Of a DNA stretch of 64,000 nt, positions 10,682 through 21,975 are shown in pieces. How positions within the stretch are numbered: the first letter of the stretch is position 1; every line of letters starts with the position of its first letter. The DNA comes from Lysobacterales bacterium (GTDB taxonomy: Bacteria; Pseudomonadota; Gammaproteobacteria; Xanthomonadales; SZUA-5). Below the pieces are notes generated by a model, which was not told the DNA's origin, did no database searches, and saw nothing but the letters and a program-made list of their open reading frames with translations. The stretch spans positions 12,875 through 76,874 of the forward strand of contig JALHMG010000028.1 of the NCBI GenBank assembly GCA_022844135.1, given 5' to 3'. A program made the position numbers and the translations under genes.

Positions 10682-11619
10682 CCCTCGTTCGGAACCAGCT
10701 CGCGTAGCACGGCCGCGAAGTCGCGGCGACGCATCATTTCCACAAGCCGCGCACGCCGGAGTTGGAAGTACGGGATCAGTCGTTCGGGAGCGGCGTCGAG
10801 AATTTGGCCCTGCAAATGCTCCGTTCCGCAAGCGGCTACGCTGTCGATACAGGAGCGATTCCAAGCGGCGGAGCCTCGTTCGCAGGGCATACCCAGATCG
10901 CAAGCAATCAACTGCCACAGAGCCGCGTCCATCCCGGTGTCGGCTAACTCGCGAGACAGCATCGGCAGCGCTTCACCGAGCCGCGCAATGTCCTCCAGTC
11001 GCTCGCTGCGCAGAACCTCGTCGATGAGCGCGCGAGTTTCGGCCAGCGACTCTGGCGTATGCACGTCCCAACGGCGCGCCTGCAGCCTCGCCAGAGGATG
11101 GCCCAGTTGCGCAGCCGACTGGTGAATCTGCTCGATCTCTTTGCTGGTAGCCATCGGCACGGTCGCGCAGCGAGTGGCCAGGTGCTCAATCGCCTCATCC
11201 AGTCCCTTGCGCTCGCGGTCGGCGGTTTCAGTCGGCAGCCAGCGCCAGACTGTTTCATCGACTTTGTCGCGACGCGCAGGCGCCATCGCCGCGCGCACCT
11301 CCGCGCACAACGAAAGCTCATCGGCGCGACGATAAAACTCGTCGGCTGCGACTGGGTTCCGAAGTACGGATTTGGATGCTTGTTCCGAATCCGAATCCGG
11401 ATCGAGATCTGAGACGTCGTCATTCAACGGCAGCGATTGTCCCGCGTCGGCGTCGATCGATGGGTCCAGTTTGGCGGTCTCCATCACATCCGGTGTGGAC
11501 GTCGGTGCCAGCGATAGGTCCGATGACCTGGACTGCTCGGTGAGAAATGTCCAAACCACGATCGCCATCGCAGCTGATACAACACTTAGCAAGATTGCGG
11601 CAGCCCTGCGCTTGATCAC
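10678..11619 (-). CDS. Hypothetical membrane-anchored protein (N-terminal transmembrane helix; Asp/Ser-rich linker; paralog A)
   Basis: Track ORF of 313 aa. The N-terminus MIKRRAAAILLSVVSAAMAIVVWTF is hydrophobic. It shares motifs with the next gene (LGHPLARLQARRW, ALWQLIACDLGMPC). There is a 4-nt overlap with the upstream paralog. Confidence 0.6.
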   Translation of the reverse strand: MIKRRAAAILLSVVSAAMAIVVWTFLTEQSRSSDLSLAPTSTPDVMETAKLDPSIDADAGQSLPLNDDVSDLDPDSDSEQASKSVLRNPVAADEFYRRADELSLCAEVRAAMAPARRDKVDETVWRWLPTETADRERKGLDEAIEHLATRCATVPMATSKEIEQIHQSAAQLGHPLARLQARRWDVHTPESLAETRALIDEVLRSERLEDIARLGEALPMLSRELADTGMDAALWQLIACDLGMPCERGSAAWNRSCIDSVAACGTEHLQGQILDAAPERLIPYFQLRRARLVEMMRRRDFAAVLRELVPNEG

Positions 11620-12596
11620 GGCCTACTCGGAATCAATAGATCGAAACGTCGGGCGTTCCAATGCTCTACGATTTCGCGCGCCTGGGCCTCTGCGATCTGA
11701 CGTTCGCGTCGACTCAACATCAGCAGGCCGGCATAGCTGAGGCCGCCCATGACGCTATCGGGCGACATCTGTTGCAACGCATATGCCGACAAATCTTGCG
11801 CGCAAGCGGCTTGAAGTTGGCAAGCCGCCAAGGTGTAAGCCTCTTGCCGATAAGCACCATTCGCCAACGATATAGCGAAACCTATATCCGCCAGCCACGT
11901 TGGATCGCCCGTCTCAAGGAGCGCGACCATTGCCCGGCGACGATCGCCGCGCGCATCCTCAAAAGTCACCGAACCGTTTTCCGCCGTCATCCGGATGGCC
12001 AGTGCGCGCGCCACCGGGTGTCCCAACGCTGCCGCGCGTTCCTCCATTTCCAGGTGGGCCGAGAAGTGATCGAAATCGCCCGGCATCCACTTCGAACACT
12101 CGGTCGCGCGGTCGGAAAAGCGCTGCAGGACCATCTGGGCCACATCCGGCGCAAACCCCATACGCATCATCAGTGCTTCGACTTCAAATCCCTCTTTGCC
12201 GACGAATCCCTGAGCAATCGAGCATGCCTCGTGCATGCGCGAAAGATCGAAAGCGGCTCGAGCGTCGTTGGCCTTCGCGCGGGCTTGAAGATCTGCTGCG
12301 ACAGTGGTCAGAGCAGGCGCGGCTGGCGCACGCTCGGGGATCTGCGCAGCGAGTTCGCGCCGCTCTTGGGGCGCTTCAGCGGCATGCGGCGAAGGCGCGC
12401 TTTCGCGATCGCTCAACTCAGGCGTCGTCAATAACGTTGCGGACGTGCTGACGACGTCGGCTTTTGCGTCAGAGCTCGTTGCGGCGACGTTGGTTCGAAT
12501 GTCAGCATCATCAAACGAGCGCCGCTGCAACCAGATCGCAACCGCGAACAACCCTGTCAGCACGCAAACTGCGACGATCCTCACCCGGCGATTCAA
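11616..12596 (-). CDS. Hypothetical membrane-anchored protein (paralog B of the 10678-11619 product)
   Basis: Track ORF of 326 aa. The N-terminal transmembrane segment is MNRRVRIVAVCVLTGLFAVAIWL. The conserved LGHPVARALAIRM and AYTLAACQLQAAC motifs parallel paralog A. Confidence 0.6.
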   Translation of the reverse strand: MNRRVRIVAVCVLTGLFAVAIWLQRRSFDDADIRTNVAATSSDAKADVVSTSATLLTTPELSDRESAPSPHAAEAPQERRELAAQIPERAPAAPALTTVAADLQARAKANDARAAFDLSRMHEACSIAQGFVGKEGFEVEALMMRMGFAPDVAQMVLQRFSDRATECSKWMPGDFDHFSAHLEMEERAAALGHPVARALAIRMTAENGSVTFEDARGDRRRAMVALLETGDPTWLADIGFAISLANGAYRQEAYTLAACQLQAACAQDLSAYALQQMSPDSVMGGLSYAGLLMLSRRERQIAEAQAREIVEHWNARRFDLLIPSRP

Positions 12597-12716
12597 TCTC
12601 GATCCTCGTTCCGACTCCGAGTCATATTGCGATCTTTTTGAGCCGACGTCATCCCAACGAACGAGCTATGCGACGGTCCGGCATGACGTCCGAACGTGGC
12701 AAAGAACTCGCATCCC

Positions 12717-12757
12717 GTTGAACGAAAAAGGGCGGCCCGTTGGCCGCCCTTTTTGAT
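12717..12757. terminator. Bidirectional rho-independent terminator (AAAAAGGGCGGCC-CGTT-GGCCGCCCTTTTT) downstream of atpC
   Basis: A perfect GC-rich hairpin is flanked by an A-run on one side and a T-run on the other. It lies between the atpC stop (12772) and the next gene start (12596). Confidence 0.65.
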
Positions 12758-12771
12758 CGCGATGGCTTTGC

Positions 12772-13197
12772 TTAGTGCTTGAGGTTTTTGCGCAGCCGAT
12801 CAAGGGCTTGCAACTGCGCCTGGGTCTGCATTTGCTGCTGGTAGGCTTCGACGATGCTCATGGTCGAGTCGCCGCGACCTTCGATCACCCGCTGCGCTTC
12901 CTCCAGCGCTGCGCGCGCGGCTTTTTCGTCGATGTCCTGGGCGCGAATCGCGGTGTCGGTCAGAATCGTCACGACCGACGGCTGAACCTCCATGATCCCG
13001 CCCGACACGTACAAATGAACTTCTTCGCCGCTGGGCTGGATGACTCGCACTTCCCCAGGCTTGAGGCGCGTGATCAACGGCGCATGCCGCGGCGCGATGC
13101 CCAATTCGCCCAACTCGCCAGAGGCAACCACCAATTTGGCATCGCCGCGGAAAATCTCTGCTTCGGCGCTAACGACTTCGACTCGGATGGTGCTCAT
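12772..13197 (-). CDS. atpC: ATP synthase F1 epsilon subunit
   Basis: [43 protein letters not shown]... is a typical epsilon-subunit sequence. It is the last gene of the atp operon. Confidence 0.95.
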
Positions 13198-13342
13198 TGG
13201 AGTTTCGGTTCCTGTTGCCGTGAGCTCTTAACAAGGTTTGCGGCAATGCTGATAAATGGTCTGCGCGGCTGTGCCGCGCCCTGTGGCCTGCGCTTAGAAG
13301 TTTGCGGTGAGCCGTAAGCAACCAACCCACCGCCAACCTGAC

Positions 13343-14812
<1,470 letters not shown>

Positions 14813-14829
14813 TCAATTGGCTGAATCGA

Positions 14830-15012
14830 CTAGCCGTCCAAACCTAGTTGTCGCCTGATGACGCGACACAACGAATCTCGAATCTCGTTGTGTCGAGGAA
14901 CTGGCGCTTGGCGCCCGTTCGCCGGATTCAGGTACATGTCGTGGCGGCCACCATGTCGCAAAAGTACGCATCCACGATCAACCAATTCTCGAATAAACGC
15001 GCGTCGATTCAC
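14830..15012 (-). CDS. hicA: HicA-family toxin (mRNA interferase) of a type II toxin-antitoxin pair; the likely GTG start overlaps the hicB stop (GTGA)
   Basis: ...AFIRELVDRGCVLLRHGGRHDMYLNPANGRQAPVPRHNEIRDSLCRVIRRQLGL matches the HicA/YcfA consensus (G.H....P......VP.H.E.....L..I.RQ.GL). The track ORF (14830-15081) extends further upstream in the same frame. Confidence 0.7.
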   Translation of the reverse strand: MNRRAFIRELVDRGCVLLRHGGRHDMYLNPANGRQAPVPRHNEIRDSLCRVIRRQLGLDG

Positions 15013-15221
15013 GCCACTTCCAGAAGCACCGCTTTCGCCCTCGCAGCCGGCGGCACGGGCTCTGAGCCTGCGCCCGCACATACCATGCGGTAAGCGTCTT
15101 CAATGTTCTCTTCCAACTCCTGAAGCGTTTCCCCCTGGCTGAAAACGCCAGGAACTTCTTTAAGTCGACCGACAAACCAACCATCGTCTTCCCAGTATTC
15201 GAGCGTGAATTGATGCTTCAT
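15009..15221 (-). CDS. hicB: HicB-family antitoxin (short, 70 aa)
   Basis: MKHQFTLEYWEDDGWFVGRLKEVPGVFSQGETLQELEENIEDAYRM is the characteristic HicB N-terminal fold motif (the ...GETLEEA..NI.EA part). It lies immediately upstream of hicA. Confidence 0.65.
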   Translation of the reverse strand: MKHQFTLEYWEDDGWFVGRLKEVPGVFSQGETLQELEENIEDAYRMVCAGAGSEPVPPAARAKAVLLEVA

Positions 15222-15280
15222 GTGGTCTCTCGATGCCCAACGGACGTCAATGACAACATTACCACCTCACGACGATCGAA

Positions 15281-16144
15281 CTACACTGCCGCAGCGCCAC
15301 CCACAATTTCCGAAATCTCTTGCGTAATCGCTGCCTGACGGGCTTTGTTGTACACCAGCGTCAGGTCGCCGATCAGCTTGGTGGCATTGTCTGACGCGCT
15401 CTTCATGGCAACCATGCGCGCAGCGTGCTCGCTGGCGAGATTCTCCAGCGTCGACTGGTACACCAAACTTTCGATGTAACGCGTGAGCACGTGATCCAGA
15501 ATGTCTTTGGCGTTCGGCTCGTACAGGTAATCCCACGAGTGCGTCGACTCCAGCGAATCGGACGGCGGCAGCGGTAACACCTGATCGATGGTCACCTTCT
15601 GCGTCATGGTGTTGACGAAGTGGTTGTAGGCCAGGAACAAGCGATCGGCGCGACCCGACATGTAATTGTCGAGGATGACTTTGATTGCTCCGATCAGCTG
15701 CGAGACCTGCGGCTTCTCGCCAAGATGCGTCACCGACCCCTCAAAGTTGACCTTGAGGCGTTTGAAAAACGCGGTGGCCTTCTGGCCGATACAAACCACA
15801 TCGATCTCAACGCCTTTCTGTTGCCACTCGCGGAACTCGCCGAGCAGACGACGGAACAAATTAGCGTTCAAGCCACCGCACAAACCGCGGTCGGTGGAGA
15901 CAATGATGTAGCCGACGTGCGAGATCTCTTTGCGCTCGACCAGGAACGGATGCTGATAGTCGGTGTTGGCTTTAGCGATGTGGCCGATCATCTGCCGCAT
16001 CAGCCGCGCGTACGGGCGCGAAGCCTTCATCAAGTCCTGAGCGCGGCGAATCTTGCTCGCCGACACCATCTCGAGCGCGCGCGTCACCTTGCGGGTGTTC
16101 TGCACGCTCTTGATCTTGGTTCGAATTTCTCTTGCGCCGGCCAT
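15281..16144 (-). CDS. atpG: ATP synthase F1 gamma subunit
   Basis: [36 protein letters not shown] is the canonical gamma-subunit N-terminus. Confidence 0.95.
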
Positions 16145-16276
16145 TCGTTTGCTCGCTTCGCTCGCACAGTCTCAGAAGTAACGGGTCACGCGCCCAGGGC
16201 GCGCCAAGCAGCCAGTGGCTCGGGATTCGATGCTGTTTTCCCAATGACCATTGACTACTTCCTATTTACCGCTTCT

Positions 16277-17824
16277 CTACCAGCTCCCGGTCTTCTTGAA
16301 CTCCGCAATGCCCTTCTTGAAGGCGCCTTCCAGCTCGTCGTTCCAGTCGCCCGTGGTGTCGATCTTAGTCATCACATCGGCGTAGTTGCTGCGCATGTGC
16401 TTGTGCAGCGCCTTTTCGAACGGCTGAATCTTCGCCAGCGGCAGATCGTCCATGAAGCCCTTATCGACGGCGTACAGCGACAGACCCATATCGGCAACGC
16501 TCATCGGGGCGTACTGCTTCTGCTTCATGAGTTCCGTCACGCGTTGACCGCGTTCCAACTGCGCACGCGTGGCCGCGTCGAGGTCGGACGCGAACTGAGC
16601 GAAAGCCGCCAGTTCGCGGTACTGCGCCAGCGCCAGACGAATACCGCCGCCGAGCTTCTTGATGATCTTGGTTTGTGCTGCACCACCGACGCGCGACACC
16701 GAGATACCGGCGTTCATCGCGGGGCGGATACCCGCGTTGAACAAATCGGTTTCCAAGAAGATCTGGCCGTCGGTGATGGAGATCACGTTGGTCGGCACGA
16801 ACGCCGAGACGTCGCCGGCTTGCGTTTCGATGATCGGCAGCGCGGTCAGCGATCCCGTCCTGCCTTTCACAGCGCCGCCGGTGAACTTCTCGACGTACTC
16901 CGGATTGACGCGCGCGGCGCGTTCCAAAAGGCGCGAGTGCAAATAGAACACATCGCCCGGATAGGCTTCGCGGCCCGGCGGGCGGCGCAGCAACAGCGAG
17001 ATCTGGCGATACGCCCAGGCCTGCTTGGTCAAGTCGTCGTAAATGATCAGCGCGTCTTCGCCGCGGTCGCGGAAGTACTCGCCCATTGCGCAACCGGCAT
17101 AGGCGGCGACGTACTGCATCGCGGCCGACTCGGACGCAGAAGCGGCGACGATGATGGTGTGCGCCAGCGCGCCGTTCTCATCGAGCTTGCGCACCACGTT
17201 CGCGATCGAGCTCTGCTTCTGGCCGATAGCGACGTAGATACACTTAATGCCGCTGCCCTTCTGATTGATGATGGTGTCGACCGCCAGCGCGGTCTTGCCG
17301 GTCTGACGATCGCCAATGATCAGCTCGCGCTGACCTCGGCCGACAGGCACCATCGCGTCGACCGATTTGTAGCCGGTTTGCACGGGCTGGGCAACGGATT
17401 GACGCCAGATCACGCCTGGCGCCACTTTCTCGATGGGACTCGACAACTTGGCGTTCAGCGGTCCCTTGCCATCGATCGGCGCACCGAGCGCGTTCACGAC
17501 TCGCCCCAGCAACTCAGGACCCACCGGCACTTCCAGAATGCGACCCGTGGTTTTGACGGCATCGCCCTCGCGCAAGTGCTCATAGTCGCCGAGCACCACG
17601 GCGCCGACCGAGTCGCGCTCCAGGTTCAGCGCCAAAGCGAACGTGTCGCCCGGCATTTCGATCATCTCGCCCTGCATCACATCGGCGAGGCCATGGATGC
17701 GCACGATGCCGTCGGACACCGAAACAATGGTGCCTTCGTTGCGCGCTTCGGCGGCCGATTGAAATTTCTCAATCCGCGACTTGATCAGATCGCTGATCTC
17801 GGAGGGATTCAGTTGCGTCTGCAT
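16277..17824 (-). CDS. atpA: ATP synthase F1 alpha subunit
   Basis: [21 protein letters not shown]... and GDRQTGKTA (Walker A); 515 aa. Confidence 0.95.
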
Positions 17825-18029
17825 GGCATTTGTCCAAAGTTCTAATTTGTCGTTGGGAACAACGCCAACACAGTAATTGCAGCGCTGTGCCGTCGCACCC
17901 AGTGAAAAGTGAAAAGTGAAAAGTCAACGGAAATGGGCGCCTTGGCAGGTGCCGAGCCCTGGTCTGACTTTTGACCTTCCACCTTGTTCGAGCGGCGGAA
18001 GGACTGACGTCCAGCCGCCGCCGTCCAGC

Positions 18030-18560
18030 TCACATCAATTCCGCTCGAAGCCGCTTCAATTTGCCGCGCACCGAGCCGTCGATCACAACGTCCCCGGCCT
18101 CGACCACAGCGCCGCCGAGCAGCTCCGGATCGATGGACAGTTCGAGATCGATGGCACGGTTGAACCGCTTGGCCAAGGCGCCGACCAGCTGCTGCTGTTG
18201 CATAGGCTCAATCGCCATTGCAGCGCGAACGCGAACCTGCAGTCGCTTTTCATCGTCGGCACGAAGCTTCTCGAACAGCGAGGCGACTTCCGCGAGCAGC
18301 GACAACCGCTGATTGGATTCCAGCATCGCCAGGAACCGGCCGAAACTGGAACTTGCGTTATCGCCTTCGCTAAGGAACAGCGAAATACGATCGGCCGCTT
18401 GCAGCTTCGGGCTACCCAGCAAATCGTGCACCGCCGACTGATCGGCCACCTGGGCGGCGAAGCCCAAGCGAGCGGACCACTGCGCCTGCGCGCCTTCGTT
18501 TTTGGCTAACTCGAAGGCAGCCCGTGCGTACGGCCGTGCGAGGGTCGTTGCATTGCTCAT
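18030..18560 (-). CDS. atpH: ATP synthase F1 delta subunit
   Basis: MSNATTLARPYARAAFELAKNEG... is typical of the delta subunit (OSCP). There is a 4-nt overlap with atpF. Confidence 0.9.
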   Translation of the reverse strand: MSNATTLARPYARAAFELAKNEGAQAQWSARLGFAAQVADQSAVHDLLGSPKLQAADRISLFLSEGDNASSSFGRFLAMLESNQRLSLLAEVASLFEKLRADDEKRLQVRVRAAMAIEPMQQQQLVGALAKRFNRAIDLELSIDPELLGGAVVEAGDVVIDGSVRGKLKRLRAELM

Positions 18561-19033
18561 CGCGCGATCTCGGCGATCAAATCGTCGAGCAGCGCCTTGT
18601 GCGCGGCCGCGTCGATCTCTTTGCGAATCAGCTTCTCGGCACCCTTGACCGCCAACTCAGCCACCTGCGTGCGCAACGCTTCACGCGCACGGTGGGCTTC
18701 GGTTTCGATCTCGGCAACCGCAACCGCTTTCTGGCGATTACCTTCGGCAATCGCATCGGTCTTGGCTTTTTCGACAATCTGACCGTACTCCTTCTCGGCC
18801 CGATCGCGAATACCAGAAGCCTCAGCTCGCGCCTCGCGCAACACCTGATCTTGCTGCGAAGACGCCGATGCCAGCGCGCGCTTGCCTTCTTCGGCTGCCG
18901 CCAGTCCGTCACCGATTTTCTTCTGACGTTCTTCGATCGCACCGATGATGTGCGGCCAGCCGAACTTCATGACCAGCCAGGCGACCGCGAAGAACGCGAG
19001 TCCCTGGATGACCAAGGTCACATTAATGTTCAT
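18557..19033 (-). CDS. atpF: ATP synthase Fo subunit b
   Basis: N-terminal transmembrane helix MNINVTLVIQGLAFFAVAWLVMKFGWP followed by a long charged coiled-coil. Confidence 0.9.
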   Translation of the reverse strand: MNINVTLVIQGLAFFAVAWLVMKFGWPHIIGAIEERQKKIGDGLAAAEEGKRALASASSQQDQVLREARAEASGIRDRAEKEYGQIVEKAKTDAIAEGNRQKAVAVAEIETEAHRAREALRTQVAELAVKGAEKLIRKEIDAAAHKALLDDLIAEIAR

Positions 19034-19093
19034 GCGTCTCTCTCCGCTCTATGTCGCGCCGAAACCGGCACGACGCCCGCAACGAAAGGCAGA

Positions 19094-19381
<288 letters not shown>

Positions 19382-19532
19382 TTAGCTTGGTTCTTGGTTC
19401 TTGGTGTTGGTCCTTGGCTGGGCCTACGACGAACGCCGTCAGCTCATCCAAAAAACCGCTCTTTCTTACTTCTGTGAACTTGGGCCCTGATATCGGCTAT
19501 TTCCAGCAACCAACAACCAGGAACCATCAACC

Positions 19533-20739
<1,207 letters not shown>

Positions 20740-21201
20740 GCTGAGATCTCGAGACTGCGGCGCGTTGGTACTCGCGCCGCGGGTGGACCCGTAAAAATCA
20801 ACGGGAGTATAGGTTGGCTTTTTCGCGCGTCGCAAGCGTTCGGACGCGAAATTGTCATGGAGCGGTGCAACATTTATTGAGCGAAGGCTCTACTGCTCTG
20901 CGCGGTGGCTCACTGCTGCGCCTTGAGCCTCGCACGTTGTTGAATCGCAGGTTCTGTGGGTTTTCCATTTGCGAGTCCGGCGCGTGACCAGACTCGCTCT
21001 CCATGGAGCAAGCACTTATGTGCTCGATCGATGCGCAATCCTGGTTCCCACAGCAGGCTGTTTCGCAACAGCCTGCTGGAGCACTGGACGGAGCAGGTTT
21101 TTTTGAACCACGTCAAGTGATGCGCGGGTTGTGGCCGATACATCCGGTTGTCGGCGAGCGAAGCCCGCATCGCTCGTCGGTCCGTGGCGGAACTCGTGCT
21201 G

Positions 21202-21975
21202 TTACCAGCCCGGATCGGGTACAAAGCCGGGAAACGCCTGCGGCGAACGTTGAGCGTAGCCGCGATACGGTGGCGGCAGAATACCGGCCGCGATCAGATT
21301 GCGCCGAGAATCGTAGTACACGGTCCGCACTTCGCTCGGCACGTGACTGGCACGGACGAACTGCGTGGAACGTGCATGACTCCACTCGCGTTCACCGTGG
21401 CCTGTACCCAGCGGCGCGCCGGCAAAGCCCTTGTCGTACGCTTCTGCGCTTGCGCCCGGCGCTTGAGTACGCGGTGCGCCATGTGTGTCGGCACCACGCT
21501 GCGACTCGCGCTTGGCGATCCAATTGTCCTCTTGGACATAGGCGCGACGTTCATGAAACACGGCCACACCGATTACGCCGACATCATTGGGACGCCCGGT
21601 ACGCGCGGCATAGCTCTCGGGCAGCGGCGCGAAGTTGAAAGCAGCGATCTCGCTCATGTTCTTGCGCCAGCCGTTGATGACCGTCGACTGCCACGGGCCC
21701 AGCACATAGCCGGATTGACCGGGATTGGCCGTCTCACCCGTCACCACGTTCACGCCATCGACCGAGAGCACCGCCAGTACACGCTCACCGCTGCGATTGG
21801 TCAGTCGAATGCCATAGCGATGGCCAGGCTCGCCGACCGCAAAATCCTGACCTTGATGACGGACCATCGGTACGTCGCGACCGAGCGTGCGGTCTTCGAG
21901 TCGAACCTCGACTTGGGCGAACAACGCCGGCGCTGCTGTCATCAACGCCACCGCCAGTGTGCTCTTGCGCATCAT
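21202..21975 (-). CDS. Hypothetical secreted protein (signal peptide MMRKSTLAVALMTAAPALFAQ)
   Basis: Track ORF of 257 aa with an N-terminal signal peptide. It is downstream of exbBD on the same strand. Confidence 0.5.
   Translation of the reverse strand: MMRKSTLAVALMTAAPALFAQVEVRLEDRTLGRDVPMVRHQGQDFAVGEPGHRYGIRLTNRSGERVLAVLSVDGVNVVTGETANPGQSGYVLGPWQSTVINGWRKNMSEIAAFNFAPLPESYAARTGRPNDVGVIGVAVFHERRAYVQEDNWIAKRESQRGADTHGAPRTQAPGASAEAYDKGFAGAPLGTGHGEREWSHARSTQFVRASHVPSEVRTVYYDSRRNLIAAGILPPPYRGYAQRSPQAFPGFVPDPGW

Follow-up and report, generated by a model that had tools for sequence, protein, structure and literature searches.

A predicted hicB–hicA toxin–antitoxin pair lies inside the ATP synthase operon of a Lysobacterales bacterium, between the genes for the F1 gamma (atpG) and F1 beta (atpD) subunits, and the same cassette recurs at this position in no fewer than 10 lineages, which have diverged to AtpG p-distances of as much as 0.31. 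The DNA under study (hereafter, the window) is a stretch of 64,000 nucleotides from a single contig (JALHMG010000028.1). Our main reading, to which we give a probability of about 0.6, is that the pair is a functional, promoter-less Class 2 hicBA toxin–antitoxin system that would have entered the operon once and would be transcribed with the atp genes as internal cistrons.

A hicBA pair between atpG and atpD

Genes of the operon are arranged on the minus strand in the order atpB-E-F-H-A-G, hicB, hicA, atpD, and atpC (Table 1). The original prediction had described the operon as an otherwise canonical atpIBEFHAGDC; the labels atpB, E, F, H, A, G, D, and C were upheld by Pfam, whereas the atpI label was not, because the ORF at the usual atpI position upstream of atpB (20368–20736, minus strand) had no Pfam match, ATP-synt_I included. 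The start of atpD was set at MSQGKVVQ by alignment with relatives. The atpG stop and the atpD start lie 531 bp apart, a distance made up of 59 nt, the cassette, and 80 nt, and the GTG start of hicA overlaps the TGA stop of hicB as GTGA (4 nt). The coordinates, gene sizes, GTGA overlap, and gap of ~530 bp that had been predicted were all correct, with the operon on the minus strand, and the placement of hicB–hicA between atpG and atpD on the operon strand was borne out by profile, homologues, and predicted fold.

Downstream of the operon, the window contains several ORFs of other kinds. Just beyond atpC, two tandem ORFs (10678–11619 and 11616–12596, minus strand) encode 313 and 326 aa with a 4-nt overlap; neither had a Pfam match, their mutual similarity is weak (24% over 143 aa, E = 0.002), and each carries a hydrophobic N-terminal segment. 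In an ORF of 1440 aa (6003–10325, minus strand), Ala, Ser, Thr, and Val abound and the organization is repetitive and Ig-like; its sole match was a sub-threshold Big_2 hit, and it probably encodes a large secreted or surface protein.

Table 1 Features of the atp operon and the hicBA cassette in the window, in the direction of transcription.
Feature	Position	Strand	Remarks
Candidate operon promoter (sigma-70-like match) upstream of atpB	20806–20835	minus	Consensus match
atpB-atpE-atpF-atpH-atpA, upstream part of the operon	16277–20375	minus	
atpB	19533–20375	minus	Pfam ATP-synt_A
atpE	19094–19369	minus	Pfam ATP-synt_C
atpF	18557–19033	minus	Pfam ATP-synt_B
atpH	18030–18560	minus	Pfam OSCP
atpA	16277–17824	minus	Pfam ATP-synt_ab
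atpG (F1 gamma), directly upstream of hicB	15281–16144	minus	PF00231, E = 1.6e-101
59-nt spacer, atpG stop to hicB start	15222–15280	minus	GAGAG, Shine-Dalgarno-like, 6 nt before ATG
hicB, predicted antitoxin of 70 aa	15009–15221	minus	ATG start; HicB N-terminal (partial RNase H-like) domain alone
hicA, predicted HicA-type mRNA interferase toxin of 60 aa	14830–15012	minus	GTG start
Perfect 11-bp inverted repeat with 10-nt loop in the 3' part of hicA	14864–14895	minus	Codons R-H-N-E and S-L-C-R
80-nt spacer, hicA stop to atpD start	14750–14829	minus	Ends in the atpD ribosome-binding region ATTGAGTTTGGAG
atpD (F1 beta), directly downstream of hicA	13343–14749	minus	PF00006, PF02874, PF22919
atpC (epsilon), last gene of the operon	12772–13197	minus	PF02823

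Family assignment of the two proteins

Based on profile, homologues, and structural model, the 60-aa ORF is a predicted member of the HicA family. It exceeded the HicA_toxin (PF07927) cutoff of 27, scoring 34.5 bits (E = 2e-8; profile positions 2–58 of 58), and its nearest non-identical database homologue was found at E = 1.6e-26. The 132 database relatives, from many phyla, measure 58–61 aa, so the GTG start is favored over the longer ORF of 83 aa. Across 56 aligned homologues, residues G21, H24, D25, P37, P39, R40, and H41 never vary. E. coli HicA (6hpb) aligns with the whole HicA profile, the G-x-x-H motif standing in register with GSNH, and the position of H24 is presumably that of the catalytic His of the B. 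pseudomallei and E. coli proteins. The AF2 model (pLDDT 95.4) has the order alpha-beta-beta-beta-alpha (H3–12, E16–20, E24–29, E34–39, H46–55) and superimposes on 6hpb_A and 6g26_E with TM 0.77–0.84 and rmsd 1.3–1.4 Å.

The 70-aa ORF is, on comparable grounds, a predicted short HicB without a DNA-binding domain. Its scores were 26.7 bits for UPF0150 (PF21748; cutoff 27.3) and 17.9 for HicB_lk_antitox (PF15919; cutoff 27), and an identical protein (P0121) carries PF21748 in a precomputed annotation table. Pfam searches therefore did not fail on both ORFs, an outcome that the original prediction had named as counting against it: HicA lies above its cutoff and HicB 0.6 bits below. A total of 4813 homologues of ~68–70 aa, named as HicB family in their sources, were recovered, the nearest non-identical one at E = 1.4e-28. 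The AF2 model (pLDDT 84) shows beta-beta-beta-alpha (E7–12, E15–20, E27–30, H33–50), the fourth strand not being modelled, and its top Foldseek matches were all HicB N-domains or UPF0150 proteins (probability 0.99–1.0; TMq 0.51–0.58), the best being the N-terminal toxin-binding domain of B. pseudomallei HicB (6g1c), TTHA0281 (2dsy), and Y. pestis HicB3 (4p78). Neither profile nor model contained an HTH or RHH domain in these 70 aa, which leave no room for either. A search of NCBIfam gave no match for either ORF, and PADLOC-DB 2.0 gave no defense-system family at E ≤ 0.01 for HicA or HicB.

Other atp-linked cassettes

The best HicA homologue (83% identity) is likewise located between atpG and atpD, in another organism whose AtpG is 76–80% identical to that of the window. 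All seven HicB relatives of at least 72% identity whose location was looked up (P0123, P0128, P0131, P0134, P0136, P0143, and P0161) also lie between these two genes; P0146 from Thiohalocapsa (HicB identity 69%) is not atp-linked. A metagenome scan added a further atpG–atpD hicBA locus (L099). Besides the seven HicB relatives, three atp-linked loci were found via HicA. The atp-linked loci (L088/L089, L099, L114–L119, L120, L121–L123, L124–L128, L129, L130–L132, and L133) belong to metagenome contigs or MAGs, whose placement as Xanthomonadales-like comes from AtpG and AtpD similarity alone.

The cassette is packed more tightly in these loci than in the window, with 9–13 nt from the atpG stop to the hicB ATG (window: 59 nt) and 28–40 nt, or an overlap, from the hicA stop to the atpD ATG (window: 80 nt). 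The 4-nt hicB/hicA overlap is present in the window and in nearly every relative examined, with L099 differing. The hicA stop overlaps the atpD start in L099 (700–725, ATGA) and L131 (~1295–1305, TGATG), so translation of F1 beta would be coupled there to translation of the toxin gene. An intact hicA is found in all carrier lineages, including loci missed by the gene caller, with the exception of one frameshifted contig. In that contig (L128, 518–690) the frameshifted hicA accompanies an intact hicB, reflecting either a sequencing error or decay of the toxin.

Comparison with wider relatives was based on 77 species-representative loci (Arenimonas, Dokdonella, Rhodanobacter, Xanthomonas, and others) with AtpG 67–82% identical to that of the window. 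HicA or HicB occurred in the atpG–atpD spacer of 0/77, and tblastn of both proteins against 80 species-representative atpG loci returned no match, showing that carriers are absent among the species representatives. In the comparison of spacing that had been proposed as a check, the spacer measures 28–185 bp in 73 of the 77 loci and 75 bp in strains of the same species, against 531 bp in the window. A toxin–antitoxin pair in the atp operon had been called unusual, and no representative carries one; the pair is nonetheless no isolated oddity, being conserved in related lineages. Given that same-species strains and the 77 relatives do without it, the cassette is dispensable, and any benefit would therefore be conditional.

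Other small same-strand ORFs are present in atpG–atpD spacers of 572–662 bp (L006, 1632–2147; L028, 1662–2162; L043, 4876–5355). The spacer ORF of a Dokdonella MAG encodes 171 aa with a signal-peptide-like N-terminus, and a Xanthomonas-like MAG and a Luteimonas MAG share a spacer ORF of ~160 aa that is lipoprotein-like with a Cys-rich C-terminus. Because different ORFs occur there in other genera, small genes seem to have landed repeatedly in the atpG–atpD spacer within this order. A 292-bp spacer in a Dokdonella MAG (L012, 4862–5159) contains a duplicated, REP- or MITE-like element of ~40 nt, in which a peptide-like string occurs twice in the reverse frame.

Descent and selection

Trees were built by neighbor-joining on short proteins. 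With HicB and HicA combined, seven atp-linked cassettes were monophyletic relative to 15 non-linked relatives (bootstrap 152/200), and when 131 HicB sequences were placed in a tree, the minimal clade to include all nine verified atp-linked HicB comprised 41 of them, 0 of which are known to be non-linked. Distances of HicBA and AtpG were correlated over nine carrier lineages (Mantel r = 0.82, p = 1e-4). In a tree of AtpG and AtpD, the carriers formed one group comprising the window and L121, together with an Ahniellaceae MAG (L014), and another comprising L114, L124, and L120, next to Rudaea and Rhodanobacteraceae MAGs, with non-carriers falling between the two. This patchy distribution requires several losses or transfer by recombination.

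Both hicA and hicB are under purifying selection. Where dS was unsaturated, dN/dS ranged over 0.06–0.16 for hicB and 0.05–0.16 for hicA, compared to 0.12–0.32 for atpG and 0.08–0.21 for atpD. Sequence relationships are most simply read as one old capture, after which the cassette would have passed down with the operon and been lost several times, the empty allele of the window's species being one such loss; spread by recombination via the conserved flanks is the alternative. A neutral passenger is hard to uphold, because the toxin has stayed intact through long vertical descent at a fixed site.

Filled and empty alleles within one species

Six metagenome contigs encode an AtpG that is 100% identical to that of the window (96–98% DNA identity) but have a 75-bp atpG–atpD spacer and no hicBA. 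The insertion had been suggested to have become fixed, which is not the case, given that these strains of the same species have an empty site. Homology between filled and empty alleles ends exactly at the atpG stop and restarts 4 nt before the atpD ATG, and the two spacers are non-homologous, sharing only a weak similarity of 15 nt and 6 nt. Exact insertion borders cannot be drawn because the spacer is hypervariable (34–137 nt) across the whole order. Locally elevated divergence around the cassette, as expected of a recent import, was considered and rejected: differences stay at the background of ~2–3%, save for 9 in the last 120 nt of atpG.

A seventh contig with identical AtpG (L081) has a filled site and shares 1573 identical bp with the window, a tract that runs through atpG and hicBA and 140 nt into atpD. 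The flanks of the contig (1–80 and 1660–1813) differ, and a 145-bp stretch of atpD with 21 differences agrees with neither the window nor the empty strain. This mosaic is either the product of recombination or an assembly chimera. In one of the empty-site strains (L083, 4745–6767), IS66-family transposase genes (TnpB_IS66, DDE_Tnp_IS66) follow atpC at a distance of ~1 kb. The window has other genes there, so the stretch beyond the operon also varies between strains.

Expression signals and RNA structure

Within 12500–21500, the match upstream of atpB was the sole sigma-70-like match on the operon strand. A consensus scan of the coding strand in the window, L121, and L114 gave no promoter-like or terminator-like sites flanking the cassette, although a promoter may lie within atpG near its 3' end or in the 59-nt spacer of the window, where such a scan could miss it. 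In most carrier lineages the gap between atpG and hicB is too short to hold a promoter. Direct or inverted repeats flanking 14750–15280 amounted to short matches at chance level, and GC content at the cassette edges is 0.51–0.53, compared to ~0.6.

Copies of hicA that are atp-linked have retained the inverted repeat of the gene's 3' part, with 77% of cells paired. A conserved RNA hairpin was considered at this place and rejected, since covariation was no better than in shuffles (159/500), and the fold of the hicA 3' end together with the 80-nt spacer was also no better than shuffles (z = −1.07).

Proposed working of the cassette and rival explanations

According to the main reading, a cassette would have entered the atpG–atpD spacer once, in an ancestor of the Xanthomonadales lineages near the Ahniellaceae and Rhodanobacteraceae MAGs, and from then on would have descended together with the operon, disappearing from several lineages and strains. 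It would have no autoregulated promoter of its own, because HicB is without DNA binding and hicB mostly starts 9–13 nt after the atpG stop. Transcription of hicBA would come from the atp promoter, with coupled translation from atpG to hicB to hicA and, in some lineages, from hicA to atpD, and HicB would neutralize the HicA RNase through direct binding, as in solved HicAB complexes. If phage-induced host shut-off, severe starvation, or another such event cut off the normally constant supply of atp transcript, a more labile HicB would be depleted, and freed HicA would cleave mRNA and arrest the cell. The atp operon would in that case be a “supply line” monitored by the toxin system. That the host has co-opted such a switch, either as a sensor of phage shut-off (abortive infection) or as a link from ATP synthase expression and energy state to mRNA decay and growth arrest, is conceivable but, in our estimate, rather unlikely.

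The main rival, a minority view that nevertheless has a real chance of being right, is a selfish addiction element or recombination drive that brings the host no gain. Such an element would move via the conserved flanks, cells in which an empty allele replaces it would be poisoned by a longer-lived HicA, and selection at the level of the gene would keep toxin and antitoxin intact. Presence/absence polymorphism inside one species at 96–98% DNA identity fits this explanation, as do the sharp break of homology at the atpG stop with its resumption 4 nt before the atpD start, the mosaic contig L081, and the occurrence of wider relatives on mobile elements (beside an integrase and a primase in L090, and on viral contigs). 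The mosaic may, however, be a metagenome assembly chimera, and the empty alleles show that loss is survivable. Co-divergence with AtpG and monophyly of the cassettes fit long vertical residence equally well or better than frequent transfer, and the progressive tightening that leads to the atpD overlaps in L099 and L131 suggests accommodation by the host over a transient parasite. A recent, neutral one-off insertion of a mobile toxin–antitoxin pair heading to decay would agree with the slightly lower GC at the edges (0.51–0.53 vs. ~0.6), the empty site in close strains, and a variable spacer that holds other small genes in other genera. This explanation is largely refuted and very improbable, because the cassettes of at least 10 diverged lineages are monophyletic, co-diverge with the operon, and are under purifying selection, and flanking inverted or direct repeats indicating recent transposition were not found.

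Two further explanations give the proteins another role. HicA and HicB could be domesticated factors of the operon that process or stabilize atp mRNA (e.g., for a 1:3 gamma:beta output) or tune its expression to the energy state. The position between gamma and beta is constant in all lineages, two of which have a translational overlap with atpD, purifying selection is strong, the hicA hairpin is kept in atp-linked copies, and E. coli HicA-type and other RNase toxins cut atp operon mRNA (PMC8546651). We regard such a role as improbable, given that most relatives, like the same-species strains, do without the cassette in making ATP synthase, that the catalytic motif is identical to that of ordinary relatives, with no sequence feature setting atp-linked HicA apart from them, that hairpin covariation was not significant, and that the specificity of E. 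coli HicA is poorly defined. Least probable of all is a pair of conserved small housekeeping proteins that merely resemble HicA and HicB and form no toxin–antitoxin system. HicB is 0.6 bits under the Pfam cutoff, NCBIfam matched neither ORF, and Class 2 pairs are without experimental precedent; against this stand a HicA above its cutoff with an invariant catalytic-site His and the HicA fold, a HicB model whose top fold matches are all HicB N-domains, and nearest non-atp relatives that are ordinary mobile hicBA pairs from many phyla.

Significance of an atp-embedded hicBA pair

The atp-embedded pair offers a concrete and testable answer to the question of how HicBA with an antitoxin without DNA-binding domain is expressed. 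The pair has remained intact under purifying selection in one of the cell's most constantly expressed operons while AtpG diverged by up to ~30%, and natural filled and empty alleles within one species supply the needed comparison. Its persistence also bears on the old question of whether chromosomal toxin–antitoxin systems are kept by host benefit or by addiction. If the co-opted switch were true, it would be the first example of regulation for a HicB without DNA-binding domain, by means of a borrowed promoter and translational coupling.

Comparison with known systems

The window pair is, as far as its sequence indicates, a Class 2 hicBA module of Gerdes 2024. Modules of this class have hicB upstream, a HicB of 60–90 aa without DNA-binding domain, a HicA of 60–85 aa, and linked or overlapping genes, with predicted folds of beta-beta-beta-alpha(-beta) for HicB and alpha-beta-beta-beta-alpha for HicA (PMC10865869), and the window pair matches them in order, sizes, overlap, and folds. 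Compact HicBA/HicAB modules in which the antitoxin is without DNA-binding domain are reported to be the most prevalent HicA classes, none of which has been studied experimentally; regulation of Class 2 is an open question, and toxicity, neutralization, or protein-stability data exist for no member (PMC10865869). The Class 2 modules described to date are regarded as independent bicistronic operons, whereas the window pair sits between atpG and atpD, and ATP synthase is not mentioned in the Class 2 paper (PMC10865869).

A classical autoregulated type II system has a DNA-binding antitoxin that represses its own promoter, an arrangement not found in the window pair. The HicAB systems of E. coli K-12 (6HPB) and B. 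pseudomallei (6G26) share with it the HicA fold, the aligned conserved His, and the fold of the N-terminal neutralizing domain of HicB. They differ in that hicA comes first and HicB, of ~135–145 aa, has a C-terminal HTH or RHH domain that represses its own promoter, whereas the window pair has the reversed order, no DNA-binding domain, and no evident promoter of its own, with identities of 24–33%. The stand-alone UPF0150 protein TTHA0281 of Thermus thermophilus (2DSY) is, like the window HicB, a small single-domain protein; it is the best PDB sequence match to the HicB profile (E = 0.002; identity ~27%) and also a top fold match, but, unlike the window HicB, is not known to be connected with an ATP synthase operon.

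Chromosomal toxin–antitoxin systems that adjoin or are co-transcribed with housekeeping or regulatory operons provide a precedent. In S. aureus, mazEF lies upstream of the sigB operon, and together with relA-mazEF of E. coli it exemplifies toxin–antitoxin genes that share transcripts with core genes and have promoters of their own. The closest case in the literature searched is that of Caldalkalibacillus thermarum, where mazEF lies just downstream of the atp operon (PMC7561548); the S. aureus and E. coli cases are looser precedents. These modules stand at the edge of their operons and have DNA-binding antitoxins, in contrast to the window pair, which is inside the operon, between essential F1 genes, and conserved there. 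The open-access literature searched held no description of a toxin–antitoxin pair conserved between atpG and atpD across diverged lineages and no paper combining HicA or HicB with the ATP synthase operon; papers that join toxin–antitoxin systems with the atpG/atpD intergenic region or the atp operon seemed, mostly from their titles and abstracts, to be unrelated. As proteins, HicA and HicB are ordinary members of their families, and the novelty of the pair is its genomic context.
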